Of a stretch of 30,940 nt of DNA, positions 4,280 to 29,144 are shown piece after piece. The stretch is taken from contig JAQUKH010000030.1 in the NCBI GenBank assembly GCA_028719205.1, positions 1-30,940 on the forward strand, read 5' to 3'. This stretch comes from a bacterium (lineage in GTDB: Bacteria; JACRDZ01; JAQUKH01). Below the pieces are notes generated by a model. That model worked only from the letters and a program-made list of their open reading frames with translations. It had not been told where the DNA came from and ran no database searches. Each line of letters begins with the position of its first letter. Position 1 is the stretch's first letter. The position numbers and the translations under genes were made by a program.

Positions 4280-4834
4280 TTAAAACAACAATGAAACATT
4301 TATTCCAGCAGCGAATCCATCAAGTTTTCCTACAGGATCTGTTACTAATACCGCTGCATTAGCTATTTTGAGAAAACGATACATAACATCTATTGAAAGT
4401 TCTACTGTAGAATATTTCCCTAAAGTACTCATTGGTGTAATTTTTACTCCAACGTCAACAATCGAGGCGCCATCGGCAATACCGCCGGAAAGATTAGCCC
4501 ATCCGGAACCTAATACTACACTAACAGGCCCTGCTATTTCCTTTTGAATCCTCAATTCCTCAATATCTAAATTTACGTTACAAACCGCAGCTACTTCTTT
4601 TCCATTTAAGCGGCTGGTTTCATGATAAATTACAACCTCTGTTCCCTGATCAATAGGGAGGACTAAAGAAAAATTGCTTCCCTGACCGGTAAACCTTTTA
4701 TCAGACGGTTTAATAAAATTAACCCCGGACGAAAAACCAATAATTTTATCCGCGGCTTGCGATATTGAAGATATCCCCAACAACAGCATTACCGCGAAAA
4801 AAAGAACTGAATAGCTTTTAAAATATTTTACCAT
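4280..4834 (-). CDS. secreted hypothetical protein (possible beta-rich outer-surface protein)
   Basis: 184 aa. Signal peptide MVKYFKSYSVLFFAVMLLLGISSISQA. The alternating hydrophobic pattern and C-terminal ...VSLLF are compatible with a small beta-barrel or surface protein. Confidence 0.5.
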   Translation of the reverse strand: MVKYFKSYSVLFFAVMLLLGISSISQAADKIIGFSSGVNFIKPSDKRFTGQGSNFSLVLPIDQGTEVVIYHETSRLNGKEVAAVCNVNLDIEELRIQKEIAGPVSVVLGSGWANLSGGIADGASIVDVGVKITPMSTLGKYSTVELSIDVMYRFLKIANAAVLVTDPVGKLDGFAAGINVSLLF

Positions 4835-4910: not shown

Positions 4911-5471
4911 TTATGGTACATAACTCAAAACTCCGCCTAACCAACTAGTTCCGGAAATATTACTTGTAGTATCTATTGATGATTTAAGAAAGCTATTTGT
5001 AGTATTGAATCCTATATAAGTATTTGTCTGAGCAGTCAGTGCTTTAAAAGTAACAGTAGCTAACAGTCCATCTCCTGTCACTCCCGAGAGATGGCCGGAT
5101 CTGAATGTTCCGAGAAGTAATGTTCCCTGTTGTCCGTTATACAGAGCAGCTTTATTTTCGGCGCCAGTTCCAAGATAGGTTCCTACTTGTGAAGTAGAAT
5201 AAGCTATCAGGTTTGGGTTATAGGTTATCTCTAAAGCACCTCCATAAACATCAGTTCCTCCTTTTACCTTAATATTCAGAGTGATTGTATTATTGCTGCT
5301 TGTTGTTCCATCAAGATAAACTGTGTTGCCGGTAGGAGTGCCGGAAGGACTGAAAGTTGTTTGAGCTGAGGGGGCGGTCCCTCCACCTCCGCTTCCGCCG
5401 CATTTACAACCATTAAAATGCATTAAGCAAAGAAAAATTATTATAAGAGAGAATCCCTTTATTCTTTTCAT
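4911..5471 (-). CDS. cohesin-like lipoprotein
   Basis: Start is taken at the second ATG (5471), which has an AAGGAGA Shine-Dalgarno 8 nt upstream. The 5495 start would overlap the upstream gene. Lipobox LMHFNGC followed by a Gly-rich linker CGGSGGGG. The body (TITLNIKVKGGTDVYGGALEITYNPNLIAYS...GDGLLATVTFKAL) matches the cohesin domain pattern (..v.v.l.n...i.g..f.l.YdpnvL....G.l......dG.latvtFkal). Confidence 0.55.
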   Translation of the reverse strand: MKRIKGFSLIIIFLCLMHFNGCKCGGSGGGGTAPSAQTTFSPSGTPTGNTVYLDGTTSSNNTITLNIKVKGGTDVYGGALEITYNPNLIAYSTSQVGTYLGTGAENKAALYNGQQGTLLLGTFRSGHLSGVTGDGLLATVTFKALTAQTNTYIGFNTTNSFLKSSIDTTSNISGTSWLGGVLSYVP

Positions 5472-5484
5472 TTTTTTGGTCTCC

Positions 5485-8139
5485 TTATTTTCCAAAATTA
5501 GCCGCCATTGGTATTAAATCATTTCCATCAATTATTGAATTACCATCTAAATCCGCGAGAGCATTCCAGTTTGTATCTGTTGTGTCTGAACCGAATGCTC
5601 TTTTCAGAATGTATAAATCATGTCCATCTACCCGAGTAATTGAACCTGGAGAAAGAGTATCAATATTTCCCAGAAAGATTTTATCAAATGTTTGGGTTGG
5701 TTTAACACCAATACTATAAACACCTGTTCCTTTATTATTCCCATGTGAAACAGTCAAATAACATCTTTTACTTGATAAGGCGTGCCATATTATATTTGAC
5801 CCCCCGCCCTGGTTACCTGTTTTATCCTGCCCTAATACTGTGGCAGAGTCACTATCATACAGTTTAATAAGGGTTATCATGTCTTCAGGATATAACTTGG
5901 AAGTGTAGAAAGTATAACTATTCCCTCCTGTCGCGTCAAAATAAAAATAATCAACATCCCCGTCTGTTTCAAGCTTTCCATTGACTATCGTACTATCTAA
6001 AAGCCTTGTAGCGCCCGCAAAAGTACTGCCATAATCATCAGATATAACACCAGAAGTTTTCAGGGAAGCATTTGCAGAAAGGTTAAAATTTTCTGTTATT
6101 TTTACTTCAGGAATCGAAGATCCTGCTTTAATGGAAGTCCCATGTGGAGTCTCCACAGAAGTACCAGATGGATTAGAAACTTTAGCATTGAATGTGTAGT
6201 CACCATTTATATAATTGGCAATTATTCCCGTATATTTTCCGTCACCGGCTATGTAATCAGGACTTAAACCATCATCTTTTAAACCAATAGCTGATGTAGT
6301 AACAGCTCCTGTTGTATCTGTAACGGTAACAGTTGCCTCCACAGTAGCGCCCTTAATATTTAATCTTCTATAGGGAGTTGCTGTTATTAATATTGGCTCA
6401 GGATATTTTCCTCCATTTGCCTCCAGGTCCAATGAATAATCCGCATCTGTTTTAGCTTCTAATATAACCTCGATATTTGTAGTATCCGCGGATGATAACG
6501 AAAGTTCCATTTGCCATTCGCCTGAAGCTGGATCGGTTACTTCGTATATTATATAACCGGGTTCTTTAATATAATTAATATTTGAAAAAGCGCTCACGGT
6601 TGTAGAATCAACTAAAGCATTATTAGGCATTATCAGGCTTAATCCCATCTTTTGTGTATTTGGGAAAGCAGCACTAAATATTGCTTTTTTAGAGGAGGGG
6701 TCTACGATAACACTTGTGGTTTTAGATGGTTTTGAAAGATTTAGATTGTCTTTAACCCAAGCCGTAAGTTTATCATCAGAGGTCATGCTTTGAATATCAG
6801 AATAGATGGCATTAAGTGTGGCGGCTGATGACGCAAAATAGGATTTACCTCTCGTTCCCGTTGAGACAGCGCCTAATGTAGCCATATCTGCGTTTGCGCC
6901 TAATCCTATAGAGTAAACAGGGTATCCGGCACTTTGCAAATCAGTTAGAACCGCTCCTGTCGGTGATTCTCCGCTATTATGCAAGCCATCTGTCAGCAAA
7001 ACAATATACTTAAACGTTCCTTTGCGCGTACTGGCGTTTAAAATATTTAAACCGCTGCGTAATGCGGCTCCAATAGCTGTATTATTACCGGGAGCAATCG
7101 TGTCGATACTTGCTTTAAATCCGGCTTTTGTGGTTGAATCCAGCAGTGCAAGCGAAGCCAAAGTAGATACTACGTCATCATAAATCACTACAGCGGCGTA
7201 ATCTGTTTCTTTAAGCTTATCAAGATATGATTTCGCGCCGGATTTGGCATCCTGCATTTTAGTACTGGTATTAACACTGGTACTCTCGGCCATACTTCCT
7301 GAATGATCGATAATGATGACGGCCTCTGATCCTCCCATATATATTATTTCCACATCCGGAGCGCCGGCAGGTTGTGTCAGGACAGTCGGGTTTGCAAGCG
7401 CGTTGAGGTCAGGGAATTCATATCTTGGCAGTTGAGATGTCAGCCTTGGATTAAAAAGATCCCAAATCGGGTCTCGAACTAATGTCGCCCAGCATGAGGA
7501 TTCATTCATTCTCCATTGAGCGGTATTCTGGGTAGTACTGCTATAATCTGAATCAAGGCTGAACTGCTGATTAGTCCTGTGATCAGCCATTAAGGTTATT
7601 TTCCTGTTATCTGTGGAATGAGGCATATAGTCGATACTGTCATATGTTGTGGAAGTCGGTTTATATTCATCATAAAGGCCATAGGCGTAATGCCCTAATT
7701 CATGGGCCATCGCATGGCCTACTTCATTAAGATCATTGAGATTATCATCTACCCATATTCTTCCGGCATTATGGGTAAAACCATTGGGGGTAGCATTTGC
7801 TAAATCTCCATTGTTTTCAAATTGAATATCTGCCTTACCCCATTCACGTTCTTTATTAGTAATAGGATCAGGAGTATATACATAGAGAGTTTTTAAGAAA
7901 TGTTTGCCTTCTGTCATTTTATAAACATCGCTGGCAAAGAGTTTAAAAACAGTATCTAAGTGTGTTGTGTCAGTAGCGGTAGGTTTCCATTTCAGAGAGA
8001 TAACAAGATTAAAGGCTCCGGAGGAATCCCATTTTGTAAGGGAACTGCTGCCTGCGTATACAGTAGAGTAATTTAAAAATAGAATGAAAGCTATTAATAT
8101 ACCAAAAAAAATTCTATTTAGAATATATTTCATTTTCAT
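5485..8139 (-). CDS. secreted CLCA-like zincin metalloprotease with VWA domain and C-terminal dockerin
   Basis: 884 aa. Signal peptide. HAMAHELGHYAYGLYDEY fits the CLCA-type motif HExxHxxxGxxDE (codons at 7690-7704). MIDAS DHSGSM plus ...LLTDGLHNSG indicates a VWA domain (about 7294-7308). The C-terminus carries two dockerin-type Ca-binding repeats (VDGHDLYILKRAFG and DLDGNSIIDGNDLIPMAANFG) at about 5488-5680. Confidence 0.7.
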   Translation of the reverse strand: MKMKYILNRIFFGILIAFILFLNYSTVYAGSSSLTKWDSSGAFNLVISLKWKPTATDTTHLDTVFKLFASDVYKMTEGKHFLKTLYVYTPDPITNKEREWGKADIQFENNGDLANATPNGFTHNAGRIWVDDNLNDLNEVGHAMAHELGHYAYGLYDEYKPTSTTYDSIDYMPHSTDNRKITLMADHRTNQQFSLDSDYSSTTQNTAQWRMNESSCWATLVRDPIWDLFNPRLTSQLPRYEFPDLNALANPTVLTQPAGAPDVEIIYMGGSEAVIIIDHSGSMAESTSVNTSTKMQDAKSGAKSYLDKLKETDYAAVVIYDDVVSTLASLALLDSTTKAGFKASIDTIAPGNNTAIGAALRSGLNILNASTRKGTFKYIVLLTDGLHNSGESPTGAVLTDLQSAGYPVYSIGLGANADMATLGAVSTGTRGKSYFASSAATLNAIYSDIQSMTSDDKLTAWVKDNLNLSKPSKTTSVIVDPSSKKAIFSAAFPNTQKMGLSLIMPNNALVDSTTVSAFSNINYIKEPGYIIYEVTDPASGEWQMELSLSSADTTNIEVILEAKTDADYSLDLEANGGKYPEPILITATPYRRLNIKGATVEATVTVTDTTGAVTTSAIGLKDDGLSPDYIAGDGKYTGIIANYINGDYTFNAKVSNPSGTSVETPHGTSIKAGSSIPEVKITENFNLSANASLKTSGVISDDYGSTFAGATRLLDSTIVNGKLETDGDVDYFYFDATGGNSYTFYTSKLYPEDMITLIKLYDSDSATVLGQDKTGNQGGGSNIIWHALSSKRCYLTVSHGNNKGTGVYSIGVKPTQTFDKIFLGNIDTLSPGSITRVDGHDLYILKRAFGSDTTDTNWNALADLDGNSIIDGNDLIPMAANFGK

Positions 8140-8162: not shown

Positions 8163-8621
8163 TCATAATTTTTTAATAGTAACATCTATTTTTCTCACTG
8201 AATGAGATTCTTTATGTTCTTCCTTTCTGGGTTTACATTCAAATATATCCCCCTTGCTGAAAGGCGGAGCTTTAGCAACGGATTCATTGATTATCCACGA
8301 TGATAATTTTTTGATATAAAAAATATCATCTACACCTTCTACTTTTATGTAAATTTTCCCTTCCTGTATTTTTGTGATAACTCCTTCGCATCTTCTTTCT
8401 GTTTTTGTATCGGGGCCAAACTCAGGATCTTCTTCAATGGTTTCGTAGGTTTCAATACAAATTACGCTGTCGCCGATAACTAGATCTTCATTAGCCTGAT
8501 TTTTTTCAATACTGCTGTCGGCCGCTTTTTCATCACAAGATACTTTCATATTCAAAAAAACTATTCCTGTTATGAACAAAACGGCAAATAAAATAAAAAA
8601 TTTCTTATAAAAATGACACAT
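8163..8621 (-). CDS. small membrane-anchored/secreted hypothetical protein
   Basis: 152 aa. N-terminal hydrophobic segment FFILFAVLFITGIVFL, then a charged acidic domain. A possible promoter TTGACT-N16-TAGAAT lies just upstream on the minus strand (about 8640-8670). Confidence 0.5.
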   Translation of the reverse strand: MCHFYKKFFILFAVLFITGIVFLNMKVSCDEKAADSSIEKNQANEDLVIGDSVICIETYETIEEDPEFGPDTKTERRCEGVITKIQEGKIYIKVEGVDDIFYIKKLSSWIINESVAKAPPFSKGDIFECKPRKEEHKESHSVRKIDVTIKKL

Positions 8622-8691
8622 TATAAAACTATTCTAACATTGATATGTATGAAGTCAATATAAAATTTTGGGATACAAATATAGTACAAAT

Positions 8692-8723
8692 AAAAAGGGG
8701 AGGCAGGTCGCCTCCCCTTTTTT
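8692..8723 (-). terminator. rho-independent terminator (bidirectional: A5-ggggaggc-aggtc-gcctcccc-T6)
   Basis: Perfect 8-bp GC stem with a 5-nt loop and U-runs on both strands. It begins 11 nt after the stop of the 8738..9940 lipoprotein gene. Confidence 0.8.
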
Positions 8724-9940: not shown

Positions 9941-10046
9941 TTTCTCCTTATTTAATTTAATCGATCCCCCAATTGCAGAAATTCAGAGTATTTGATCCCC
10001 TCCTTTCTTTAATAATTTATTGAAATAATTAAATTAATGCCCGTTA

Positions 10047-10075
10047 AATATAGCAGATATTCTCACTTTTATCAA
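10047..10075 (-). promoter_or_regulatory. candidate sigma70-type promoter for the 8738..9940 lipoprotein gene
   Basis: Minus strand reads TTGATA (plus 10070-10075), a 17-nt spacer, then TATATT (plus 10047-10052). It lies about 100 nt upstream of the ATG at 9940. Confidence 0.3.
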
Positions 10076-10104
10076 AATATTCATATTTTGTCAATCAAAA
10101 ATTT

Positions 10105-13100
10105 TTATTTTTCCTCCGACAAACGGCGGAAATATCCCTCCACAAGTTCGCGGTATTCTAAAGGTATTTTATCCTCCTGCATATTTTCTATCTCGGACAA
10201 AATTTTCTTTTTGATGTCTTTAAAAGAATCCGGCAGGTCCTTTGGAGCTTCATTAATTCCAAAGTCCTGTCCGGTGGTTGATTTCCATTCTTTTCCTGCC
10301 TCGCGCTGCCTGATGGATTTCTGGGCGTCGAGCAGTCTTGTTAATATTTTCCGCTGTCTTTGCTGTACTTTTTCATCGGCTTCTTTGTTTTTTAATCCTT
10401 TTTCCACTTCTTCCATATCGCTTAAAGTCCCCCCGAAACTTCCTGATTTTTCGGAAAGAGACTGCATTTGTTTTTCCAATTCCTCCAGGGCCTGTTTAAT
10501 AAGGGATTGTTCAAACGCCATTTGCTGAAAAATATTTTCTTCCTGCGGGTTTAACCCTCCATTTTTTTTCATCAATCTATCAAGTTTTTTGGTAAGCTCA
10601 TTCAGATTTTCCTGCCGTTCGGAAAGTTTTTTCAATTCCTCCATAAATGAACCCGATCCGCCTCCGGGGGGGGCGTCTGAAAGGTCCTCATGCAGTTTAA
10701 TTAAATAAAGGGTTATACTGTTAACCTTTCCCATGCCTTCTTTCCCAAAGGAAAGCGCCTCCGGGGTTTGCCCGTTTTTCAATGCCTCAATGGACTGGCT
10801 GAGATTATCCTGAGCCTTTCGAATATTATCGGCTAAATGAGGATTAATAAATATAAATTTTTTTGATAATTCTTTGTATTCTTTTTCAAAAAGGTTGACA
10901 CCTTGTTTGAGGTTGTTTTCCTTTCCTGCCAGTTCCTGCCGTTTTTCTTCACTGACGCCTGACCGGGATTCGGATAAATTTTTTCTTGTCATTTCGTTTA
11001 TTTCATTTCCTGATGATGAAATTATCAGTCCGTAATCAATGGCCTTTTCAATAGCGGATAAAATTTCCTGCATGGATTTTTCTTTAAAATCTTCCTGTAT
11101 TTTGCTGAGTTTTTTGGAGAGGCCTTTTAACTCAGACGATATTTTCTCGTCAATTTTTTTACCGCCTTTTTTAACCGCGGATTCAAGCTCTTTTGTCAGC
11201 TCATCCATTTTCTTTTCTAATTCATTTTTTTCCATTTCATTGCTTGCCTCTTTGAGGCTTTCTGAAGTTTTTTTATCCATCTCTTTCAGGTCTTTGCTTA
11301 GTTTTTCAAGGTCATTTTTCACATCGTTAGTTTCTTTTTTTATGGATTTTTCTTCACTTACCGCTTTATCATCAGGGAAGATGTTTTTTTCCTGGCGGTT
11401 TGCCAATTTATCAACCTCATTAATTAAGGCCTCCAGTTTCTGTTCCGCAAGGGTTCGTTTTAATAAATTAAGCGTGCGGTCTATCTTTTCTTCGAATTCC
11501 TTTTGGTTAAAATTGGTTTCCATAAGTGATTTTTGTTTTTCTGAAAGGTTAGTCTGCTGCAGCGCTTTATTTATCTTCTCCATTAATTCTTTCATTTCAG
11601 CGGTTAAAACCTCATTGATCAGCTTTTGGATTTCAGCGATCTTTTCCAAAGTGTCTTCCTTAATAAAAGTACTCTTGGACAGCCTGTCAGTAGTGGTTTT
11701 CATATTTTTTAATATGTTCTCCAGATTCTCTTTGACTTTTTCCTCGCCTTTATGTATTGATTCCAGTTCTTTTTCTTTTGCCCAGTCAAATTCTTCCCCC
11801 TGGCTCATGCTGTTGATAAATTTTTCGGTCTTTTCTTTCAGGTCCTTTTGTTCCTTCAGGACATTCTGAAGTTTCAGGTTTTCAGACGTTTGGCTGTCTT
11901 CCGTGTCTTTATAGATCTCGAATAAAGAAGGAAAACGGATCTGGTAAGTATCAGACTTCCCGATATTCGGGCCGCTGATATTGTCATTGTCTTTTGCCTC
12001 AATATGATAGATTATTGTATCTCCCGGAAGAAAACCGAGCCCGGCTAAATTCCAGATGTAATCAAAAACAAGACTTTTATCCTGCGGACTTCCGGGTTTT
12101 TGCGTAAGCAGTATAGAGGCGGTTTCATTCCGGCTTAATATTTCAGCTTTTAATTCCACTGTGTCAATTCCATAGTCATCAAGCACGGAAATTTTTAACG
12201 GAACGATCATCCGCTCATCAATTGTTATATCTTTCCCCGGCTCAATTATTTTTACATCCGGAGGGTTGTCTAAGACAGCGTTAATTTTATATTGAGGGGA
12301 TTCGTTTGTGTATCCGTCTTTATCAAAAAGCTCAATATAATAGTTATCATCTTTTTTGACGGTTAACTCACCGCTTGCCTTGTTTTTCCGGATATTCATG
12401 GATATCTTTTTACCCGAAGGGAATTTCAGGCTCGCTGACTTAAGCTCTTTATTGCAGTCGATATTGATCTTTGCCCTGGTTCCGGTTATGGCTTTGATCC
12501 AGTTATCATTAACCGTTTTGGGAGGCAATTTTGTGTATTCAGGAAAAATAAGATCAACCTTAAGGTCGCGAATCTCAGGCTTTTCAATGATTTGAATAGT
12601 ATACTCAGGCGATTTCATATCTCCATGTGTAACATAATATTTTGTATCTTGTGTAATTTGAGAGAGCAGGGTCTGGTGTTTTGTATTTGTGATCCTGTTA
12701 AGGTCCTGAGTTTTTATTTCATTTCCGTTTGTCCAATAGAATATTTTTACATCGTTAAGGCTGGTCTTCAGGGAAAAGGCGGTTATCTCAATATCGTTTC
12801 CCGGAAATATTTTTGCGTTTCCCGGCGATATCTTTAACGGTATAGAGGGTGATACATTTTGAAACTCATTAGAAAAAAAAGACGAAGTCCCCGCGAACAT
12901 ATCGGGCGATATAATTATCAGCAATAATAAAAGCCCGGCCGCCGCGGCAAATATCCTAAGATCGTTTTTAAGGGGTTTCGCGGAAACAGCGTTTTTAAAA
13001 TTATACTTTGCAATAAGTTGTTCGGTATTTTCCAGATACGCGGAAATAAGGTTAAGAGAGTAACCATAGGTGTTATTATTAAAATATTTTTTTAATTGGA

Positions 13101-13410
13101 TATAATTGATAATTGTATATTTTAATTGCGGGATCTGATTCTCTATCAGAAAAGCTGTTTTCTCCGCGTTATATTTTTTGAAAACAGGGATCTGTAGAAA
13201 AACAAATATAAGTATGAAAAACAAAAAGGATCCGAATCTAAGGAGAGAAAGGAAACTGTAATTAGCATTGAACAAATTAATTATTGGCGTGATCGCAATA
13301 ACAAAAAACAGCGAGACGGTGAGGAATAAGATCATACCCTTGATGAATTCAATTCCCTTCAGCCTCAAAGAAAAATTATAAAGTTTTTGTTCCACAGTTT
13401 CCTTATTCAT
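10105..13410 (-). CDS. 1101-aa membrane-anchored giant coiled-coil protein (Lys/Glu-rich)
   Basis: Three N-terminal hydrophobic helices (ILFLTVSLFFVIAITPIINLF, FLFFILIFVFLQIPVF, IFAAAAGLLLLLIIISP). Then a beta-rich region of about 350 aa. Then more than 500 aa of heptad-like K/E/L/Q-rich sequence (EKQKSLMETNFNQKEFEEKIDRTLNLLKRTLAEQKLEALINEV...) with a short GGGSGS hinge. Codon usage is consistent across the whole frame. Confidence 0.65.
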   Translation of the reverse strand: MNKETVEQKLYNFSLRLKGIEFIKGMILFLTVSLFFVIAITPIINLFNANYSFLSLLRFGSFLFFILIFVFLQIPVFKKYNAEKTAFLIENQIPQLKYTIINYIQLKKYFNNNTYGYSLNLISAYLENTEQLIAKYNFKNAVSAKPLKNDLRIFAAAAGLLLLLIIISPDMFAGTSSFFSNEFQNVSPSIPLKISPGNAKIFPGNDIEITAFSLKTSLNDVKIFYWTNGNEIKTQDLNRITNTKHQTLLSQITQDTKYYVTHGDMKSPEYTIQIIEKPEIRDLKVDLIFPEYTKLPPKTVNDNWIKAITGTRAKINIDCNKELKSASLKFPSGKKISMNIRKNKASGELTVKKDDNYYIELFDKDGYTNESPQYKINAVLDNPPDVKIIEPGKDITIDERMIVPLKISVLDDYGIDTVELKAEILSRNETASILLTQKPGSPQDKSLVFDYIWNLAGLGFLPGDTIIYHIEAKDNDNISGPNIGKSDTYQIRFPSLFEIYKDTEDSQTSENLKLQNVLKEQKDLKEKTEKFINSMSQGEEFDWAKEKELESIHKGEEKVKENLENILKNMKTTTDRLSKSTFIKEDTLEKIAEIQKLINEVLTAEMKELMEKINKALQQTNLSEKQKSLMETNFNQKEFEEKIDRTLNLLKRTLAEQKLEALINEVDKLANRQEKNIFPDDKAVSEEKSIKKETNDVKNDLEKLSKDLKEMDKKTSESLKEASNEMEKNELEKKMDELTKELESAVKKGGKKIDEKISSELKGLSKKLSKIQEDFKEKSMQEILSAIEKAIDYGLIISSSGNEINEMTRKNLSESRSGVSEEKRQELAGKENNLKQGVNLFEKEYKELSKKFIFINPHLADNIRKAQDNLSQSIEALKNGQTPEALSFGKEGMGKVNSITLYLIKLHEDLSDAPPGGGSGSFMEELKKLSERQENLNELTKKLDRLMKKNGGLNPQEENIFQQMAFEQSLIKQALEELEKQMQSLSEKSGSFGGTLSDMEEVEKGLKNKEADEKVQQRQRKILTRLLDAQKSIRQREAGKEWKSTTGQDFGINEAPKDLPDSFKDIKKKILSEIENMQEDKIPLEYRELVEGYFRRLSEEK

Positions 13411-13612: not shown

Positions 13613-13867
13613 ATGGATTATAAAATATCTGCGAATGAACTAAAGACAAAAGGCGTATCGGCTATAAAAGAAGCTACTGCTAATTATCCGGAGGCAGTTA
13701 TAACGGTAAGGGGTAAGAGCCGTTATGTTGTTATTCCAATCGAATCATATAATCATTTGAGGGAATGTGAACTGGAAGCCGCTATTATTGAATCCAAGAA
13801 AGATATAAAAAATGGTAAATATGTCCAGGAAAGTGTTGAAGATCACATTAAAAGACTAGTGCGCTGA
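13613..13867 (+). CDS. Phd/YefM-family type II antitoxin
   Basis: 84 aa. ...ISANELKTKGVSAIKEATANYPEAVITVRGKSRYVVIPIESYNHL matches the Phd/YefM core (ITkrGkpvaVvvsveeYe). Confidence 0.7.
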   Translation: MDYKISANELKTKGVSAIKEATANYPEAVITVRGKSRYVVIPIESYNHLRECELEAAIIESKKDIKNGKYVQESVEDHIKRLVR

Positions 13868-13913
13868 TAAATTAATTTTGATGCGATAGAATGCCCAGAT
13901 TTGAGACAATTTC

Positions 13914-14086
13914 AACGAACGACGACGCAGGCGTATCCTCTGCGATACGTCAAGGAGGAGTGAGGCAGAAATTGGCCAAAGATGGGTATTCCCGAAGGGC
14001 AGAGGTTCTTTTGCCCCGCTTCTGCGTTGCTCGTCGCTAACATACCGCAGAGGGTATGCTATGCTCCTCGTGCCTTGAATCAGGCC
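13914..14086. repeat. GC-rich, highly structured about 170-bp insertion separating antitoxin and toxin genes
   Basis: Abrupt GC-rich island in AT-rich DNA. It contains two similar local hairpins: cgtatc-ctctgc-gatacg (13933-13950) and catacc-gcagag-ggtatg (14041-14058). There is long-range complementarity between cgacgacgcag (13920-13930) and ctgcgt-tgc-tcgtcg (14021-14035), plus ccc-gaa-ggg and ggccaaag...cttttgcc pairs. The 5' end tttcAACGAAcg resembles the TTTTAACGAA end of the attC-like family at 25-30 kb. Confidence 0.5.
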
Positions 14087-14133
14087 AAAATAATCTCTGC
14101 TATCACATCAAAATAAATTTAACAGAGCACAAC

Positions 14134-14412
14134 ATGGCTAAAATAATATATACCGAAAGTTATATTAAACGGGCAAAGAAATTTGTTAAGAAACATCCTG
14201 AGATTATTAATCAATACGCTAAAACATTAAAATTGCTTGAAATTAATCCGTTTCATCCGTCCCTCAGGCTTCATAAATTAAAAGGCAGGCTTTCCAATCT
14301 ACATTCCGTATCAATAAATATCTCATACCGCATATCGATTGATTTTATAATTGAAAATGATACAATTATACCAATTGATATCGGTTCCCATGATGAAGTA
14401 TATCAAGATTAA
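14134..14412 (+). CDS. RelE/StbE-family type II toxin (mRNA interferase)
   Basis: Start is placed at the internal ATG at 14134 (MAKIIYTESYIKRAKKFVKKHPEI...). ...HKLKGRLSNLHSVSINISYRISIDFIIENDTIIPIDIGSHDEVY matches the RelE/ParE core (L.G.l.g..s.ri..dyRiiy.i.d..i.ii.igHR.d.Y). The ORF-track start at 14056 would add 26 residues read from the GC-rich insert. Confidence 0.7.
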   Translation: MAKIIYTESYIKRAKKFVKKHPEIINQYAKTLKLLEINPFHPSLRLHKLKGRLSNLHSVSINISYRISIDFIIENDTIIPIDIGSHDEVYQD

Positions 14413-14442
14413 ATTATTGCTACTTGAATATTAGGAAGGTAT

Positions 14443-14718
14443 ATGAGAGTTAGAAAAAACGAATTTAGGCGCGCGGAACCGCACATAGAATTAACGACAG
14501 GCGAGGTTATTCAAATGCTTCGTGAATTGAAAGAATGGACTCAGGAAGAATTGGCTAAACGCTCTGGTATTAACTCTACAAACATTAGTTTACTGGAAAA
14601 TGGCAGGGTAGATATTGGTAAAAAGCGGGCGGAACAATTGGCAAAGGCCTTCAATATCCATCCGGCAACTATCATGTTTCCCGAGTATGAGTCTTTGGAA
14701 ATAAAAAAAGCGGCGTAA
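14443..14718 (+). CDS. XRE-family helix-turn-helix transcriptional regulator (HigA-like position)
   Basis: 91 aa. LRELKEWTQEELAKRSGINSTNISLLENGRVDIGKKRAEQLAKAFNI is a Cro/C1-type HTH. AGGAAGG ribosome binding site. It lies 30 nt downstream of the RelE-type toxin, the same order as in higBA. Confidence 0.7.
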   Translation: MRVRKNEFRRAEPHIELTTGEVIQMLRELKEWTQEELAKRSGINSTNISLLENGRVDIGKKRAEQLAKAFNIHPATIMFPEYESLEIKKAA

Positions 14719-23977: not shown

Positions 23978-24085
23978 AGTCAAATATCGTTAATATTTTC
24001 TGATCTTCTTGTCTTTTTATCATTTTATATATTTCCGCTGAATATTTCACTTCATTCGATACAATGTTTTTTATTTTATGATTTT

Positions 24086-24340
24086 TTAGAAATCAGATAT
24101 GGGTTTATCATTTGACGATAAGTTCCCGGGAAATTTATGAGCTAATTCCTTTCCGTCATAAATACCAAAACCAATTTCGATATCACGTTGTTCATCCATA
24201 CTTTTTCTATAAGACAAATTGTAATCACCTAAGCCTCCTCCATAAGAAAACACTATTCCAATTTTATCTTTTGCACTTAAACATGGTGCAGTTCCAAAAA
24301 TGATTAAACTTGTTATTAGTACAACTTTTAAAATTCTCAT
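24086..24340 (-). CDS. small secreted hypothetical protein
   Basis: Start is taken at the internal ATG 24340 (MRILKVVLITSLIIFGTAPCLSA..., a signal peptide), which is preceded by AAGGAGAACT. The longer 24478 start would overlap the upstream gene by about 95 nt. Confidence 0.4.
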   Translation of the reverse strand: MRILKVVLITSLIIFGTAPCLSAKDKIGIVFSYGGGLGDYNLSYRKSMDEQRDIEIGFGIYDGKELAHKFPGNLSSNDKPISDF

Positions 24341-24383
24341 AGTTCTCCTTCTTTTAAAATATAAGTTTATTTTCGATAAGAAA

Positions 24384-25040
24384 TCAAGAAATCCAGCACA
24401 TAAAACGGCCAATTTCTTTCCAAATATTGTTTTTCTTTTCGTAAAGAATATAATAACCTGCGCCACTTGTGGGCCCAATCATGAAACCGGCATATAACAA
24501 AGCTTGTGTTTTATCTTGATTAAATCCAACTCGCGATAAAGTTGTAACACCAAGTAATTGCGCACTTGGAAAACGATTATATAACTTTTCACTAAAAATA
24601 GAAGTAGAATCTCCACTTAACAAAATTTGATTTTCTAATTCTTCAGTAAGAAAAATATATTCATTCTCAATGGGAATAACACAGTTCAAAGTTGATGATT
24701 CTTGATTTCTTTTCCAGAAATCTTTAAACGTATCCGGTAAGATATTGACAATTTTAAATTTCTCAAAAAATACAGACAAAAAGGTAAAATGATTTTTTTC
24801 ATCTTTATATTTGTTTTTACCAGATGTATCTATTGGAATATCCATTTCGGTTTTATCTTTAATAATTAAAACAGGTTTTTCTTTTGGTTCCTTGTTGTGT
24901 TTAGTTTTTTGTTCAATAAATGCATTAAAATATATAGAGTAAATTAGAGCTTCATCAGAGTGATTAGAAATATCGGCAGCAACAGTAAATGATAATTTAA
25001 AAAAAGAAATAATTATAATTGTGCATAAAATTTTCTTCAT
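24384..25040 (-). CDS. secreted hypothetical protein (terminal cassette-like ORF)
   Basis: 218 aa. Signal peptide MKKILCTIIIISFFKLSFTVAA. No recognisable family. It lies immediately downstream of the relic attC-like element. Confidence 0.5.
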   Translation of the reverse strand: MKKILCTIIIISFFKLSFTVAADISNHSDEALIYSIYFNAFIEQKTKHNKEPKEKPVLIIKDKTEMDIPIDTSGKNKYKDEKNHFTFLSVFFEKFKIVNILPDTFKDFWKRNQESSTLNCVIPIENEYIFLTEELENQILLSGDSTSIFSEKLYNRFPSAQLLGVTTLSRVGFNQDKTQALLYAGFMIGPTSGAGYYILYEKKNNIWKEIGRFMCWIS

Positions 25041-25097
25041 ATTATTTTTTACTACAGCCGCACTGTACTCGGCGCCGGTTACAACGTTTTGTTAATT
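25041..25097 (-). repeat. degenerate/relic attC-like site (R'' AATTAAC overlapping the stop codon; the L arm is degenerate and no R' end is present)
   Basis: The minus strand reads attaacaaaacgttgtaaccggcgccgagtacagtgcggctg. This aligns with the R''-proximal half of the 28.4-28.6 kb site (AACAAg...CCGaCGCCGAGTACgGcGCGGCTG). The outer stem is broken (cagccg vs ccggtt) and no GTTRRRY end precedes the next start codon. Confidence 0.45.
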
Positions 25098-25522
25098 TAT
25101 TTTATGACAACACATTCCTTTGGTTCGAGATTTTTTGCCATTGACCAAACAGTGGCCGCCATTTCTTTGACCCGAAATACGGCAATGCACTCTTGCCCAT
25201 ATTGAGCGACTATCGGCTTGAGGAAAGGCCTTTGTGAAATAATTTCCTCTCTTAACTTACTATCGTTTTCAGGTACGGCAATTCCGCTGACGCGGACTTG
25301 TACCAAATTCTGCGGATCGCCATTATGAAAACATAACTCAATATTAGGATTTGTCCGGAGCTGCTTATACAGGTCTCTCATCACGCCCGTGTGAAAAATA
25401 ATGCCTTTCTCATCAGCCCTATACATCCACATCCCGCGAACATGGGGTTTGTTATTAACGCACGTTGCCAACGCGCAAGACATATTTTTGTTAATGAACT
25501 CCAAGATTTCTTTCTGTGTCAT
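25097..25522 (-). CDS. pyridoxamine 5'-phosphate oxidase-like FMN-binding split-barrel protein (cassette ORF)
   Basis: 141 aa. ...SCALATCVNNKPHVRGMWMYRADEKGIIFHTGVMRDLYKQLRTNPNIELCFHNGD matches the PNPOx-family core. Its AGGAG ribosome binding site begins 6 nt after the attC R' GTTAGAA. Confidence 0.65.
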   Translation of the reverse strand: MTQKEILEFINKNMSCALATCVNNKPHVRGMWMYRADEKGIIFHTGVMRDLYKQLRTNPNIELCFHNGDPQNLVQVRVSGIAVPENDSKLREEIISQRPFLKPIVAQYGQECIAVFRVKEMAATVWSMAKNLEPKECVVIK

Positions 25523-25538
25523 ATTGTTCTCCTTTAAG

Positions 25539-25596
25539 TTCTAACGCCAAAGCTCACTGGCGGCGTACTCGCCGTCCAGTGAAGCGCCAGTTAGGC
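25539..25596 (-). repeat. integron attC-like recombination site (58 bp)
   Basis: The minus strand reads R'' GCCTAAC (plus 25590-25596), 11 nt after the brnA stop, and ends with R' GTTAGAA (plus 25539-25545). The centre is cactgg-cggcg-tact-cgccg-T-ccagtg with a single bulged T on the plus (bottom) strand. Confidence 0.7.
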
Positions 25597-25607
25597 TATT
25601 TTATTTA

Positions 25608-25823
25608 TTAAGCCGCTTTCCATTGCAAAGAAAGCCTGCGACTTGAAGCGGCACAATCACGCAAATAGAGATTGATCAGGGTTTGATATGGTATTTCTGC
25701 TTCTTCCGAAAGTTTTTTGAAATACTTAATTGTGTCCTCATCAAGCCGGATTGTAACCTGTTTTTTTAGGCGGCTAGCATATGGATTTTTTTTGGCTTTT
25801 GAAAAATCGTATTCTTTTCTCAT
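25608..25823 (-). CDS. brnA: BrnA-family antitoxin (RHH/CopG-like)
   Basis: 71 aa. KKQVTIRLDEDTIKYFKKLSEEAEIPYQTLINLYLRDCA matches BrnA. The last about 12 residues (SSRRLSLQWKAA) are read from the GC-rich attC-like element. Confidence 0.75.
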   Translation of the reverse strand: MRKEYDFSKAKKNPYASRLKKQVTIRLDEDTIKYFKKLSEEAEIPYQTLINLYLRDCAASSRRLSLQWKAA

Positions 25824-25826
25824 TTT

Positions 25827-26111
25827 TTACCTCCAATATTGTTTCTGTTCTGAACGGGTTGCTTTACGAGCAGATATAATTCTTATTACTTCATCATTCT
25901 TCTTATAACAGTGACAAACAACTAAAATACGAAGGTTAGAACTCAACCCAAGAAGTATAAATCTGTCCTCTTCATCCGAATGATCCGGGTCATGGAGAAG
26001 CAAGGCATTTTCATCAACGAATACTGTTTGGCCTTCCTCAAAGGATATACCATGTTTCTTTATGTTTGAAGTGTTTTTGTCCTTATCCCATTCAAATGAT
26101 ATGTTTGCCAT
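25827..26111 (-). CDS. brnT: BrnT-family toxin (ribonuclease)
   Basis: 94 aa. FEWDKDKNTSNIKKHGISFEEGQTVFVDENALLLHDPDHSDEEDRFILLG...LRILVVCHCYKKNDEVIRIISARKATRSEQKQY matches BrnT (FEWD..K...N..KHGv.FeEa..vF.D.......D..HS..E.R...iG). Confidence 0.8.
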   Translation of the reverse strand: MANISFEWDKDKNTSNIKKHGISFEEGQTVFVDENALLLHDPDHSDEEDRFILLGLSSNLRILVVCHCYKKNDEVIRIISARKATRSEQKQYWR

Positions 26112-26117
26112 ACTTAC

Positions 26118-26146
26118 ATTGTAACTACATTATAATGTTTTGTCAA
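26118..26146 (-). promoter_or_regulatory. cassette-internal promoter TTGACA-N17-TACAAT driving brnTA, 6 nt upstream of ATG (leaderless-type)
   Basis: Minus strand: TTGACA (plus 26141-26146), 17 nt, TACAAT (plus 26118-26123), then gtaagt and the ATG at 26111. There is no Shine-Dalgarno. The predicted transcription start coincides with the start codon. Confidence 0.5.
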
Positions 26147-26165
26147 TTTTATTTATAATTTATCT

Positions 26166-26225
26166 GTCTAACGCTAAAAAATCAGGCGTGGCTATAGGCC
26201 ATCGCCTGCATTGCCCTTGTTAAAA
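26166..26225 (-). repeat. integron attC-like recombination site (60 bp)
   Basis: The minus strand reads R'' TTTTAAC (plus 26219-26225), 11 nt after the DUF2442 stop, and R' GTTAGAC (plus 26166-26172). The centre is caggcg-tggc-tatag-gcca-T-cgcctg with a bulged T. Confidence 0.7.
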
Positions 26226-26236
26226 TCTTCTATTTA

Positions 26237-26479
26237 TTATTTAATAGTTTGTCCTACTTCGTAGAGGAAATCAGGTGAGAAATCAGCATTATTTGGCCAA
26301 ACTACAGTATCTATATCTTTATTGAGAGTTACGTTTTTAAAATATGAGATATCCTTTAGAGGCTCAAATATTTTTCCGTCAAGATATGATTTTAAATCAA
26401 CTATTTTATATTCATTATTTTCAAATTTTACTTTTAATTTATGTCCGTCAACATATTTTACATCAGTTATCCAATGCAT
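26237..26479 (-). CDS. DUF2442-family small protein (partner of DUF4160; TA-like pair)
   Basis: 80 aa. ITDVKYVDGHKLKVKFENNEYKIVDLKSYLDGKIFEPLKDISYFKNVTLNKDIDTVVWPNNADFSPDFLY matches the DUF2442 pattern (v.f.dG....vDL.p.L.G..F.pL.d...F..v......gtv.WPNGaD..Pe.L). Confidence 0.7.
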   Translation of the reverse strand: MHWITDVKYVDGHKLKVKFENNEYKIVDLKSYLDGKIFEPLKDISYFKNVTLNKDIDTVVWPNNADFSPDFLYEVGQTIK

Positions 26480-26490
26480 AAAATAACCTC

Positions 26491-26751
26491 CTATACTAAA
26501 GGTTCAATCTTTTTAAGTTCGTCTTTCCTTTCAACCAATTCCCAATCTTCCAGTAATTCTTCACGATGCAGAAAAGCCCATTCTAAAACAAGTGAAATTA
26601 TTCTTTTTGGTAAGTCACCTTCAATAAGCTTTAATTCATTTATAGAAAAAGATGCTCTGAATTCACCATACTTAGCATGAAAATGCGGTGGTGTATGTTC
26701 ATTATAATACATCGAAATTATTATTCCTAAAAATCTGGAGATTTCTGGCAT
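26491..26751 (-). CDS. DUF4160-family small protein (partner of DUF2442; TA-like pair)
   Basis: 86 aa. MPEISRFLGIIISMYYNEHTPPHFHAKYGEFRASFSINEL...LPKRIISLVLEWAFLHREELLEDWE matches DUF4160 (MP.is.F.Gi.I.my..dH.PPHfHa.Y). Confidence 0.7.
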   Translation of the reverse strand: MPEISRFLGIIISMYYNEHTPPHFHAKYGEFRASFSINELKLIEGDLPKRIISLVLEWAFLHREELLEDWELVERKDELKKIEPLV

Positions 26752-26847
26752 TAATCTTCCTTTCTGCTGAAATTATATCATATTTTATATATTTGTTATT
26801 CAGATTTTATAAAAGTTCAAATAGTTGGGATTGTTCCTAAATTTTAT

Positions 26848-26906
26848 TTTTAACGAATAAATCAGCGGTGCCGCTATGCGGTATCCGCTGCATGATGTTG
26901 TTAAAA
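26848..26906 (-). repeat. integron attC-like recombination site (59 bp)
   Basis: R'' TTTTAAC (plus 26900-26906) and R' GTTAAAA (plus 26848-26854). The centre is cagcgg-tgccg-ctatg-cggta-T-ccgctg with one inner-stem mismatch and a bulged T. The site starts 90 nt after the stop of the upstream ORF. Confidence 0.65.
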
Positions 26907-26995
26907 TCTTATTTTTTATATCTTCCCTTTTTGTTTATCGATGAAATAAAAGAGGGGTTAGGAAAGTTTAAATAGTTAAGAGCGTCCCCTATCTC

Positions 26996-27733
26996 TCAAT
27001 TGGATATAGATAAAGTTTTTGTTCTTGTTGGAGTAACAGAATCATTTTCATAAATTTCAATTGTTTTAGTATATGGACCGTCCCAGAAGGAAATATTCAT
27101 ATCATTATTTTTCGATTCTGATATAAAAACTCCTGTCGCTCCAAACATTCCTCCTATATTATTAGGATCATATTCAATCCAGCCTAAAGGATCCTTCGCC
27201 CAAATATCTTCTGAAGTTAATATAACTACTTTTAACTTAGCTCCCTCAATAAGTTCAGCTCTCAAACTATATGATTTACGAGTTATGATGTTAATTGAGT
27301 TTTCTCCTAAGATATTATTTCCGTAAATGCCTGTTTCAGGATAAGTAATGCCGGAAGTACCTGCTCCTTTAATAGTAAAAGTATAAAGGTTTTCGTCTAA
27401 ATCGTTATTTTTTATAAGTATGGAGGCAGTTTGTTCTTCTTTATTTTTAGGATTATAATTGATACTAAAAGTTTGCCTTGCGCCTAATGGAATAATCATT
27501 GAAGAAGGTTGAGTCAAAGTGAATACATTGCTATCACTTGTTAAAGTTATGTTGTCGCTTATTATTAAGTCATTATTGCCATTATTCTCTATCGTAAAAG
27601 TTATTGTCGTACTTTGATTAATTTTAATACTTCCGAAGTCATAAATTCCGCCTGAAGATATATCAGTATTCCCTACCTTCAGGATTAGTTAGTTTTGCAC
27701 CAGTGTTTTCATCTACATTCGTATTTGGGTACA
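26996..27733 (-). pseudogene. disrupted cassette ORF encoding an Ig-like/ASH-like beta-sandwich domain (in-frame TAA at 27689-27691)
   Basis: The ORF track gives only a TTG-initiated 173-aa ORF (26996..27517). The same frame reads on upstream without ATG or GTG as ...LILKVGNTDISSGGIYDFGSIKINQSTTITFTIENNGNNDLIISDNITLTSDSNVFTLTQPSS..., so the domain begins before the called start. An in-frame TAA follows MYPNTNVDENTGAK (ATG at 27733). The gene looks nonsense-interrupted. Confidence 0.4.
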
Positions 27734-27832
27734 TTGATCCTGAGGTTATTAGAAAAATTGAAAATCAATACCACCCCCCACCCGTGTTTAGTTAATTTTG
27801 TCATATGAATATTCCCTTTTTTATTTTTCTAT

Positions 27833-27889
27833 TTTTAACATTTGAGCTCAGGCGTGCCGTTAGGCGTCGCTTGAAGCGATTCGTTAAAA
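27833..27889 (-). repeat. integron attC-like recombination site (57 bp, slightly degenerate)
   Basis: R'' TTTTAAC (plus 27883-27889) and R' GTTAAAA (plus 27833-27839). The centre is caggcg-tgcc-gtta-ggcg-T-cgcttg with two stem mismatches. The bulged T is retained. Confidence 0.6.
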
Positions 27890-27956
27890 TCTTAATCTGT
27901 AAATCTTTTTTTGGTGTACTAATTCAATTCTGTTATCGAGCTGCTCCTTAAGTATG

Positions 27957-28385: not shown

Positions 28386-28396
28386 AGATATTTTCA

Positions 28397-28622
28397 ATTT
28401 AACAGCGAGTTGAGCGAAATTGAACTGGACTGGCATGCTTGCATGCCAAGACCAGGGCAATTTGCGCTCGAACGATTTGTTCGACCGCGCGAATCAGCGC
28501 GCGGTCGGACTAATCGGGCGAGTGCGTACGCGCAACTCGCTGTTCGGGCGCGCGCAGCGCGGCCGAACGCCCGAAACTCAGCCGCGCCGTACTCGGCGTC
28601 GGCTGGAGTGCACTTGTTAAAA
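28397..28622 (-). repeat. atypical long (226 bp) attC-like site with about 165-bp GC-rich structured insert
   Basis: Canonical ends: R'' TTTTAAC (plus 28616-28622) and R' GTTAAAT (plus 28397-28403). The R''-proximal arm is cagccg-cgccg-tact-cggcg-T-cggctg, a perfect stem with a bulged T. Between the arms lies very GC-rich sequence with perfect hairpins: gaccgcgcg-aatcag-cgcgcggtc, ggcatgc-tt-gcatgcc, and cgggcg...cgcccg. Confidence 0.6.
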
Positions 28623-28659
28623 TCTTAAATTGTAAAAGTATCTCACAAATTTAAAGAGC

Positions 28660-29138: not shown

Positions 29139-29144
29139 GTATAC

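Follow-up and report, generated by a model that had tools for sequence, protein, structure and literature searches.

What cohesin and dockerin modules do outside cellulosomes has been a question since such modules were catalogued in 2009, and their partners can rarely be identified. The contig JAQUKH010000030.1 of assembly GCA_028719205.1, a 30,940-nt stretch of bacterial DNA analysed here at its full length (hereafter the window), raises this question in a compact form. At positions 4911-8139 of its minus strand, an 884-aa secreted protein is encoded immediately upstream of a small lipoprotein, and an initial annotation proposed that the two make up a minimal cohesin-dockerin module. Public annotation shows only a "VWA domain-containing protein" beside a "cohesin domain-containing protein", because the dockerin at the end of the former lies below the Pfam cutoff and leaves a gap in the annotation. 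We conclude that the two genes quite probably constitute a cassette whose products, a cognate cohesin-dockerin pair, act as a tether. The proposed module is supported by comparative sequence evidence: the dockerin tail follows the cohesin gene, tail-less homologues of the 884-aa protein have no cohesin neighbour at three loci, a natural fusion of the two modules exists, and the lipobox cysteine of the lipoprotein is invariant in its family.

The two minus-strand open reading frames (ORFs), one of 884 aa (5485-8139) and the lipoprotein ORF (4911-5495), are adjacent as first described, and the peptides quoted in that description are all present. In the program-made ORF list the lipoprotein begins with a TTG and has 194 aa. 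The true start codon is the ATG at 5471, giving 186 aa; it is also the NCBI call and lies 9 nt past a GGAG directly adjoining the stop codon of the 884-aa gene (UAA-GGAGA). Since the GGAGA adjoins the stop and the ATG follows 9 nt after the GGAG, the gap between the genes is 13 nt, and the Shine-Dalgarno sequence AAGGAGA (5480-5486, minus strand) overlaps the stop codon of the upstream gene. This stop-plus-Shine-Dalgarno junction, TAAGGAGACC, is the same without any difference at a second locus carrying the pair (L001). No stable RNA structure was found at the junction (z=0.26), and the window has no Rfam or tRNA match. A six-frame scan with hidden Markov models (HMMs) recovered a single copy of each module, dockerin and cohesin, from the entire 30.9 kb.

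The 186-aa protein (NCBI MDD5773816.1; 4911-5471, minus strand, as are all features of the cassette given below) is, as judged from its sequence, a cohesin-domain lipoprotein. A lipoprotein signal peptide ending at the lipobox Cys22 (MKRIKGFSLIIIFLCLMHFNG-C; 5406-5471) and a Gly-rich flexible tether, KCGGSGGGGTAPSAQTTF (5352-5405), in which the structural model has a predicted local distance difference test (pLDDT) score below 50, were both read from the sequence. They precede the cohesin domain of approximately residues 41-186 (4914-5351), which is identified by Pfam, by Foldseek and by a family profile. Pfam Cohesin (PF00963) scores 31.8-32.0 bits on the full protein, above its cutoff of 24.1, and 34.4 bits on one relative (P0002) and only 19.0 on another (P0003). 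The beta-sandwich fold of the domain superimposes on solved cohesins: 47 of the 50 best PDB matches found by Foldseek, with an AlphaFold model built on a three-sequence alignment (pLDDT 55), are cohesins, the best being 6kgc_A (E=6e-5, TM score 0.61 normalised to the target); they include non-cellulosomal cohesins from Archaeoglobus and C. perfringens. A three-sequence cohesin profile compared with the PDB gave summed matches to WD40 repeats without a significant single stretch and was discarded, and the identity was resolved by a profile of 108 sequences, for which 30 of the 31 PDB matches at E<=0.01 are cohesins (best 3l8q_A, E=1.3e-10).

These 108 sequences come from a large family. Searching 1.84 billion cluster representatives (50% identity clusters) gave 857 matches at E<=1e-3, an upper bound because a few WD40/repeat proteins (P0111, P0121, P0127, P0205) enter as artefacts, and 140 at E<=1e-10. 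Among the best 150 matches, 117 are proteins of 147-276 aa, and most align with the query end to end; 106 of these 117 have a signal peptide and a lipobox-like Cys (by a loose pattern) followed by a Gly- or Pro-rich stretch. The sole invariant column among the 108 aligned members is the lipobox Cys, C22 of the window protein, whose own lipobox (...LMHFNG-C22) has the residues F-N-G at positions -3 to -1, atypical of E. coli-type lipoboxes. Pfam Cohesin is matched by 87 of the 108 members at E<=0.01. Because of the invariant Cys, the tethers, the cohesin profile matches and these Pfam matches, the family is best described as one of single cohesins on a flexible leash, predicted to be lipid-anchored. 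A scan of genome contigs with a profile of the cohesin alignment gave no match.

The partner module is the C-terminal tail of the 884-aa protein, residues 824-884 (61 residues; 5488-5670), as delimited by profile and by reading of the sequence. It consists of a first, degenerate loop with its helix (SPGSITRVDGHD-LYILKRAFG), a linker, and a canonical calcium loop with its helix (DLDGNSIIDGND-LIPMAANFGK). The initial annotation described two dockerin-type calcium-binding repeats here, which holds for the second and not for the first: the second repeat, DLDGNSIIDGND, has a canonical 12-residue calcium loop (D-x-D/N-x-D/N-...-D/N-x-x-D) and a helix in all six complete copies of the module, and in the first loop, which precedes VDGHDLYILKRAFG, positions 1 and 3 are not acidic. 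The helix of the first repeat is kept (...DLYILKRAFG), and the two helix segments agree at 6 of 16 positions. Compared singly with the PDB, the tail matches best a true cellulosomal dockerin, 2y3n_B (E=0.017), and with a profile of three copies of the module the same chain is matched at E=8.3e-9 (38.7 bits); 10 of the 12 other matches at E<=1 are cellulosomal dockerins or dockerin-bearing chains, the next in rank being 6kg9, 6kgc, 6kge, 5lxv_B, 4u3s_B, 1ohz_B and 3ul4_B. A word-indexed homology search with the 65-aa module returned a single 74-aa fragment. Going by sequence and profile, the tail is a divergent dockerin that would fold around at least one Ca2+, and by analogy its asymmetry suggests a single binding orientation rather than a dual one.

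The decisive evidence comes from the distribution of this tail. When the 884-aa protein is compared with the S8 subtilisin encoded at L001, only the last 61 residues are significantly alike (61% identity, E=5e-20). Similarity to VWA homologues ends at about residue 818 and similarity to dockerin carriers begins at residue 824, so the boundary of the swap is sharp. Among 74 homologues of the 884-aa protein the dockerin module is found in the window copy only, the 73 others being without it, and 17 of the 24 closest (among P0005, P0007-P0020 and P0023) end instead in a "...GGG-CF[ILV]..." tail, as identified by pattern match, to which some add a transmembrane helix. One of these tails reaches the cutoff of the NCBIfam "CFI-box putative sorting motif" (16.0 versus 15.9 bits); we know of no processing machinery for this type of tag. 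The loci of three tail-less homologues (L084-L086) contain neither a cohesin nor a dockerin. The dockerin tail thus travels with the cohesin gene and not with the catalytic domain, and the 3' dockerin end plus the cohesin gene most likely behaves as a portable unit placed behind unrelated cargo.

The pair recurs elsewhere. A word-indexed search with the cohesin lipoprotein returned only P0002 and P0003 as relatives, and the gene directly upstream of each encodes a PKD-bearing subtilisin of the S8 family (1176 and 761 aa, respectively) that ends in the dockerin module and has an intact Peptidase_S8 domain. We tallied adjacency over eleven loci, several of them on short contigs, of which nine are informative and two are cut at a contig edge. 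A gene ending in a dockerin adjoins the cohesin-lipoprotein gene in five of the nine, with gaps between the two genes of 13 nt in the window, 12 nt at L001, -4 nt at L002, 13 nt at L087 and -4 nt at L093, and the cargo varies from locus to locus (zincin/VWA, S8 with PKD and in part LVIVD, and Kelch+fn3+PKD). At L087 it is the Kelch+fn3+PKD protein that ends in the module (91 bits), and at L093 a gene with a dockerin end (46 bits) shares 4 nt with the gene of a distant cohesin, about 29% identical to that of the window. The two modules also occur in one polypeptide: P0099, a JGI metagenome protein of 1451 aa, has NHL propellers together with PKD and Big_7 domains, after which come the dockerin module (88.9 bits) and, separated from it by a linker of 7 aa, a cohesin. 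The fused part spans residues 1233-1449, there is no lipoprotein signal, and the protein could self-associate head to tail. At L089/L090 the order is reversed, the gene just downstream of the cohesin being a 65%-identical orthologue of P0099 whose C-terminus is off the contig.

More complex relatives were also found with the cohesin profile. P0095, P0106, P0107, P0110 and P0232 are multi-cohesin proteins with 3-5 cohesins. P0095 and P0106 combine them with CarboxypepD_reg domains and tails of the kind used by the type IX secretion system (T9SS), for which Por_Secre_tail scores 24-25.6 bits, just below its cutoff of 27; the tails of P0107 and P0110 look similar by eye. P0232 resembles an adaptor scaffoldin, with three cohesins and a Dockerin_1 module that is canonical (44 bits).

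The genome of the window appears to carry the cassette more than once. The L001 genes are MDD5773584 (the subtilisin, S8+LVIVD+PKD), MDD5773585 (the cohesin) and MDD5773586 (the next gene), on a 43.8-kb contig, and a third cohesin lipoprotein, P0094 (MDD5772764; L091), lies on an 87-kb contig. L001 and L091 come from one sample, and their tetranucleotide correlations with the window are 0.957 and 0.966, respectively, compared with 0.979 between the two halves of the window itself. Given the neighbouring accession numbers, the sample of origin and this composition, the three cohesins are most probably paralogues in one metagenome-assembled genome (MAG). The paired modules of the window and L001 have diverged, the cohesins being 53% and the dockerins 61% identical, and several such pairs within one genome may possibly be orthogonal.

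The cargo of the window cassette (NCBI MDD5773817.1; 5485-8139) is a secreted multidomain protein annotated only as "VWA domain-containing protein". It starts with a Sec-type signal peptide read from the sequence, MKMKYILNRIFFGILIAFILFLNYSTVYA (8053-8139), followed by an N-terminal zincin-type domain of approximately residues 30-262 (7354-8052), recognised by weak Pfam matches and a confident model, in which the catalytic motif HELGHYAYGLYDEY (HExxHxxxGxxDEY; 7663-7704) has H, E, H, D, E and Y invariant in 24 homologues. The VWA domain (6802-7320; Pfam 57 bits) has a metal ion-dependent adhesion site (MIDAS) motif, D278-x-S280-x-S282, likewise invariant in the 24 homologues, and its model superimposes on the VWA domain of CLCA1. 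In the beta-sandwich region that follows, residues 620-653 (6181-6282) match the NCBIfam family "Choice-of-anchor X" (NF041940, 32.6 bits versus a cutoff of 25). The choice-of-anchor families are those whose members carry differing C-terminal anchoring signals across lineages, and the match agrees with the CFI-box, transmembrane and dockerin tails seen among the 884-aa protein and its homologues. The last domain shared with homologues is a PPC-like (pre-peptidase C-terminal type) beta domain (5695-5997), to which Pfam PPC gives 14.8 bits; PPC is matched by 7 of the 24 homologues (best E=4.5e-9), and the family profile matches the ColH domain 3jqw (E=1.6e-4). The AlphaFold2 model of residues 29-818 has a pLDDT of 81.8 and a predicted template modelling score of 0.78.

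This protein had been called a CLCA-like protease, and the VWA domain and the HExxHxxxGxxDEY motif bear that out. Formal membership in the CLCA families fails on their cutoffs: the zincin region gives subthreshold matches to CLCA_N (16.3 bits) and Peptidase_M64 (15.9 bits), CLCA_N (PF08434) scoring 13.9-16.3 bits against a cutoff of 25.6, which none of the 24 homologues reaches and only one of them matches at all (E=0.009), and the full-length TIGR00868 (hCaCC) model gives 48 bits against 900.85, covering only the VWA domain and the beta region after it. Two homologues are named "calcium-activated chloride channel regulator 4" by JGI. "CLCA-like" is therefore a fair description of the architecture, and the protein would be a protease to judge from its catalytic motif. 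The setting is non-cellulolytic, as originally claimed: the window proteins scanned have no match to a glycoside hydrolase (GH) or a carbohydrate-binding module (CBM), the cargo itself being made of zincin, VWA and PPC-like domains.

The cassette is flanked by two small genes on the same strand. Upstream, a 152-aa ORF with an N-terminal hydrophobic segment (8163-8621) has no family in Pfam or NCBIfam scans; it is 31% identical (E=2e-25) to a 154-aa ORF directly upstream of P0005, the closest homologue of the 884-aa protein, at L084. Because a homologous ORF also precedes this closest VWA homologue, we assign the 152-aa ORF to the VWA/zincin cargo gene, as a partner conserved upstream of it. 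Directly before it lies a sigma-70-like promoter match to consensus, TTGACT-16-TAGAAT with an upstream TG (8631-8658), and farther upstream, 3' of the gene for a 400-aa lipoprotein, a consensus scan found a terminator-like hairpin with a 14-bp stem, seven G-C pairs and a T tail (8692-8722). Terminator-like sites in the region are not more numerous than in shuffled sequences, and the stem of this one is by far the longest; it is the probable upstream boundary of the transcription unit. Downstream, after 76 nt, a 184-aa signal-peptide protein ending in ...GINVSLLF (4280-4834), without a Pfam or NCBIfam family and of uncertain membership in the unit, shows by eye alternating beta-like segments and is possibly a small outer-membrane beta-barrel. 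It is absent beside the cohesin genes of L001 and L002. Because the 152-aa ORF is conserved with the cargo gene, the hairpin follows the 400-aa lipoprotein gene and the promoter-like site precedes the 152-aa ORF, the unit likely runs from the 152-aa ORF through the 884-aa gene to the 186-aa cohesin gene, perhaps with the 184-aa ORF.

The initial annotation went further and saw in the surrounding genes a possible surface assembly. We found no support for it and rejected it: of the neighbours, only the 152-aa ORF is kept together with the VWA gene, neither the TPR protein nor the 400-aa lipoprotein nor the 1101-aa coiled-coil membrane protein recurs beside either module elsewhere, and the strong hairpin lying between the 400-aa lipoprotein gene and the cassette unit counts against it as well. 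The neighbourhood is informative about the host, which is probably diderm, because the TPR protein reaches the cutoff of the BamD subfamily (85.4 versus 81.4 bits), the 184-aa ORF has, by eye, a C-terminal Phe like those of outer-membrane proteins, and T9SS-type tails occur in relatives of the cohesin. A comparison of MoxR for taxonomic placement pointed to no single lineage, giving 69% identity to a "Poribacteria" MAG and 54-65% to genomes of the FCB group, WOR-3, Elusimicrobia and Planctomycetota.

As for the remainder of the window, the 1101-aa protein (10105-13410, minus strand) has N-terminal hydrophobic segments, a long Lys/Glu-rich coiled-coil-like region and no significant Pfam or NCBIfam family; long ORFs opposite to it (10037-10528 and 11039-11869) look like compositional artefacts of its gene. 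A type II toxin-antitoxin-like cluster on the plus strand (13613-14718) combines a Phd/YefM-like antitoxin (23.1 bits) and a YafQ/RelE-like toxin (23.3 bits), both below cutoff, with an HTH_3 regulator (46.8 bits). On the minus strand at 481-2054, a 217-aa ORF without family match adjoins the gene of an IstB/DnaC-like ATPase (IstB_IS21, 67.6 bits) whose N-terminal segment is rich in Cys, and these genes may be a helicase-loader pair or a mobile-element remnant. The end of the window (24000-30940) has a low GC content of 0.28-0.35 (0.40 at 25-26 kb), compared with about 0.34-0.46 in the remaining window, and few long ORFs, several of them without a family match or with only weak Ig-like or CarboxypepD_reg-like matches; the stretches without ORFs of at least 100 aa, at about 25.5-27.0 kb and 28.5-30.5 kb, have no tRNA or Rfam match.

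In the mechanism that we propose, Sec would export both the 186-aa and the 884-aa products. The former would be lipid-modified at Cys22, so that its cohesin is held off a membrane by the Gly-rich leash of about 20 residues, and the dockerin, folded around at least one Ca2+ in its second loop, would bind this cohesin non-covalently. The 884-aa protein would thereby be kept at the cell envelope instead of being released, the dockerin replacing the C-terminal "...GGG-CFI" tag of most of its homologues. As it occupies the place of the CFI-type tag, the dockerin is most readily understood as a further anchoring device that can be exchanged for others. That the envelope site is the cell surface is an assumption.

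Several observations weigh against such a pairing. Pfam Dockerin_1 (PF00404) finds no match on the full-length 884-aa protein, and on the isolated C-terminal 74 aa it scores 17.0 bits, below its cutoff of 22.9; it is subthreshold at the equivalent position in other carriers too (20.2 bits at L001, 14.6 at L002). The Dockerin_1 match that the initial annotation asked to be checked is thus subthreshold, and it takes evidence at the level of profiles to recognise the module. The first loop, SPGSITRVDGHD, has S and G at the positions expected to be acidic and is likewise degenerate in all six copies. In the AlphaFold2 model the tail is unfolded (pLDDT about 30), and this model is uninformative on its fold; the cohesin model is itself of low confidence. 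There is no dockerin gene adjoining the cohesin gene at L088, L092 and L096, three of the nine informative loci, and L089/L090 is a fourth unless its NHL gene carries a dockerin; upstream of the cohesin genes lie V-ATPase genes at L088, a peptide deformylase at L092 and, at L096, a gene whose C-terminus fails the module HMM. Conversely, on a heavily frameshifted JGI contig (Ga0124853_1415988, L083, 1239-1379), the sole match of a metagenome scan with the module, the next gene encodes a Zn_peptidase_2 protein and no cohesin is a neighbour; the ORF fragments before the module give weak subthreshold matches to M6/InhA-type metallopeptidase models, and a protease may thus bear the module even without a cohesin gene nearby. 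Finally, a mirror-tree comparison of cohesin and dockerin divergence gave r=0.22 (p=0.54), from five pairs whose identities all lie at 0.48-0.66 and which give it no power. Some of these points have an explanation: the low Dockerin_1 score follows from the conserved asymmetry of the two loops, and the tail is unfolded in the model because no aligned sequence other than the query extends over it. The subthreshold Dockerin_1 matches fall at the same place in three carriers, which we count in favour of a dockerin.

The subthreshold scores, the degenerate first loop and the cohesin lipoprotein genes without a dockerin neighbour would also be expected if there were no interaction at all, the module being a calcium-binding stabilising element or pro-domain and the adjacency a matter of co-regulation or hitch-hiking of envelope genes. 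We regard this as very improbable, since adjacency at five of nine loci across at least four cargo contexts, together with the fusion, is very unlikely by chance if, as we assume, dockerin-ending genes are a small fraction of a genome, and since the profile similarity is specific to dockerins that bind cohesins. Small inhibitor lipoproteins are often encoded beside secreted proteases, and the lipoprotein might accordingly be a dedicated inhibitor, chaperone or immunity factor that binds the catalytic domain of the hydrolase, its cohesin-like fold being incidental; one of the 108 family members does show a weak Inhibitor_I42 match (E=0.004). This we rejected as extremely unlikely, because the neighbours belong to unrelated catalytic classes or are not enzymes (zincin, S8, Kelch) and have only the C-terminal module in common, while 87 of the 108 members match Pfam Cohesin and, at three loci, tail-less homologues of the 884-aa protein lack the lipoprotein neighbour as well.

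Two further explanations keep the binding and differ in what it is for. Because the host is probably diderm, a tether inside the periplasm, on the inner membrane or on the periplasmic leaflet of the outer one, is a live alternative, in which the complex would retain a potentially harmful enzyme or control its latency; we judge it unlikely, yet worth keeping in view. The TPR neighbour at the BamD cutoff, the ...SLLF end of the 184-aa ORF, which by eye resembles that of an outer-membrane protein, and the T9SS-type tails of multi-cohesin relatives fit it, as do the Sec signals, the only ones on both proteins, and the lack of genes for type II secretion, T9SS or lipoprotein surface export within the window. 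Against it, though not decisively, the long Gly- or Pro-rich tethers after the lipobox Cys suit projection from a membrane, VWA, PKD, Kelch, NHL and PPC are typical extracellular modules, and both the multi-cohesin relatives with Por_Secre_tail-like ends and a system proposed in Cloacimonadota (PMC8542988) are surface systems. The pair could otherwise build an adhesive or polymeric surface matrix, in which dockerin-tagged binding proteins (VWA, Kelch, NHL propellers) are linked through cohesins to cells or to each other and fusions of the P0099 type chain head to tail. Non-enzyme cargos (Kelch+fn3+PKD at L087, NHL+PKD in P0099), the intact MIDAS adhesion motif of the window cargo and the spacing of only 7 residues between the modules of P0099, which favours binding in trans, all speak for a matrix. 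It is nevertheless a rather improbable explanation, as the zincin catalytic motif of the window cargo is invariant, two cassettes carry S8 subtilisins with Peptidase_S8 intact, L083 may carry an M6-like peptidase (on subthreshold Pfam matches), and a single-cohesin lipoprotein holds one partner at a time. An envelope tether for a secreted protein thus remains the reading that we prefer.

Cohesin-dockerin pairs outside cellulosomes are already known, and the pair of the window is best placed by comparison with them and with cellulosomes. It uses the same two module families as the cellulosomal type I/II pairs of Clostridia (Pseudobacteroides cellulosolvens 2y3n, Acetivibrio cellulolyticus ScaB 3l8q, C. 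acetobutylicum 6kgc), and the best solved matches for both of its halves are cellulosomal. It also resembles them in having a C-terminal dockerin on a Sec-exported protein, with an EF-hand-like calcium loop followed by a helix. Unlike in cellulosomes, however, the lipoprotein has one cohesin, the only one in the whole window, without any scaffoldin with at least two cohesins; the cargo is without GH or CBM; and the predicted anchor is an N-terminal lipid, whereas cellulosomes are anchored by S-layer homology domains or sortase. The dockerin, asymmetric with one degenerate loop, and the uncultured, probably diderm host set it apart from the clostridial pairs as well. Engineered display on Gram-negative cells and outer-membrane vesicles uses the same principle, a membrane-anchored cohesin in the envelope that captures dockerin-tagged enzymes; these systems are synthetic and built from cellulosomal modules, and the window pair would be a natural counterpart.

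Non-cellulosomal modules were catalogued by Peer et al. 2009 (FEMS Microbiol Lett 291:1), who reportedly established neither partners nor lipid anchors for most of them. Modules of this kind include 2jh2/2ozn, which are cohesin-like and come from C. perfringens, and the cohesin 2xdh from Archaeoglobus fulgidus; 2jh2 and 2xdh are among the fold and profile matches of the window cohesin. The parent proteins of the non-cellulosomal modules surveyed in 2009 were predominantly non-catalytic (PMC13487519). A close parallel is the pair ClcC/ClcD of Cellulosilyticum lentocellum, a Firmicute, in which adjacent cohesin and dockerin genes have products shown experimentally to form a heterodimer; that pair is cellulolytic, with a GH5 cellulase as cargo and a CBM-bearing cohesin protein (PMC13487519), whereas the window cargo is a zincin/VWA protein, the cohesin is predicted to be lipid-anchored and the cassette recurs with different cargos. 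A second parallel is the cellulosome-like system proposed for the Cloacimonadota "Ca. Stygibacter", an uncultured diderm lineage known from MAGs, in which a serine peptidase (S8/S53) and a C25 peptidase are among the enzymes with Sec signals and C-terminal dockerins, and a role in degrading polypeptides has been proposed; the enzymes are organised by one scaffoldin of 3,755 aa, with tandem cohesins and CBMs, attached via a T9SS C-terminal domain (PMC8542988). T9SS-tailed multi-cohesin proteins of this kind also occur among the relatives of the window cohesin (P0095, P0106), but the window family itself consists of small single-cohesin lipoproteins, each often encoded beside its own cargo. As to the cargo, bacterial CLCA_N+VWA proteins are known (Lenart et al. 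2013) and have a HExxH zincin, then VWA and beta-sandwich domains, with M64 as the family closest to CLCA (PMC3650047). The window protein shares this order, down to the weak CLCA_N and Peptidase_M64 matches, and differs in its dockerin, which is not mentioned for those proteins in PMC3650047.

Four points appear to be new: that single cohesins with a predicted lipid anchor form a family; that members of this family recur in a cassette whose dockerin is asymmetric and sits on unrelated cargo; that this dockerin has taken over from a CFI-type tag at the C-terminus; and that one genome probably contains several paralogous cassettes. Full-text literature searches did not find them, which is not proof of their absence. 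Taken together, they allow a broader picture that we offer tentatively, as possible more than probable. The socket would be a large family of lipid-anchored single cohesins and the plug an asymmetric dockerin that probably binds one calcium ion; the two together would be a portable cassette, pasted by uncultured, probably diderm bacteria onto unrelated secreted proteins (zincin/VWA proteins, subtilisins, Kelch proteins, NHL propellers) as a non-covalent alternative to CFI-box or T9SS C-terminal domain sorting tags, with several possibly orthogonal pairs in one genome and occasional self-assembling fusions.

For the question from which we started, the value of this locus is that the partners stand side by side, that the pairing recurs with varied cargo, and that it comes with tail-less negative controls, with a naturally fused protein and, probably, with two or three paralogous pairs in a single genome. 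The small pairs that have diverged naturally within one genome could supply orthogonal parts for engineered cohesin-dockerin display. For the bacteria themselves, we hypothesise that lipid-anchored cohesins may represent a general non-covalent route by which diderm lineages anchor their secreted proteins.

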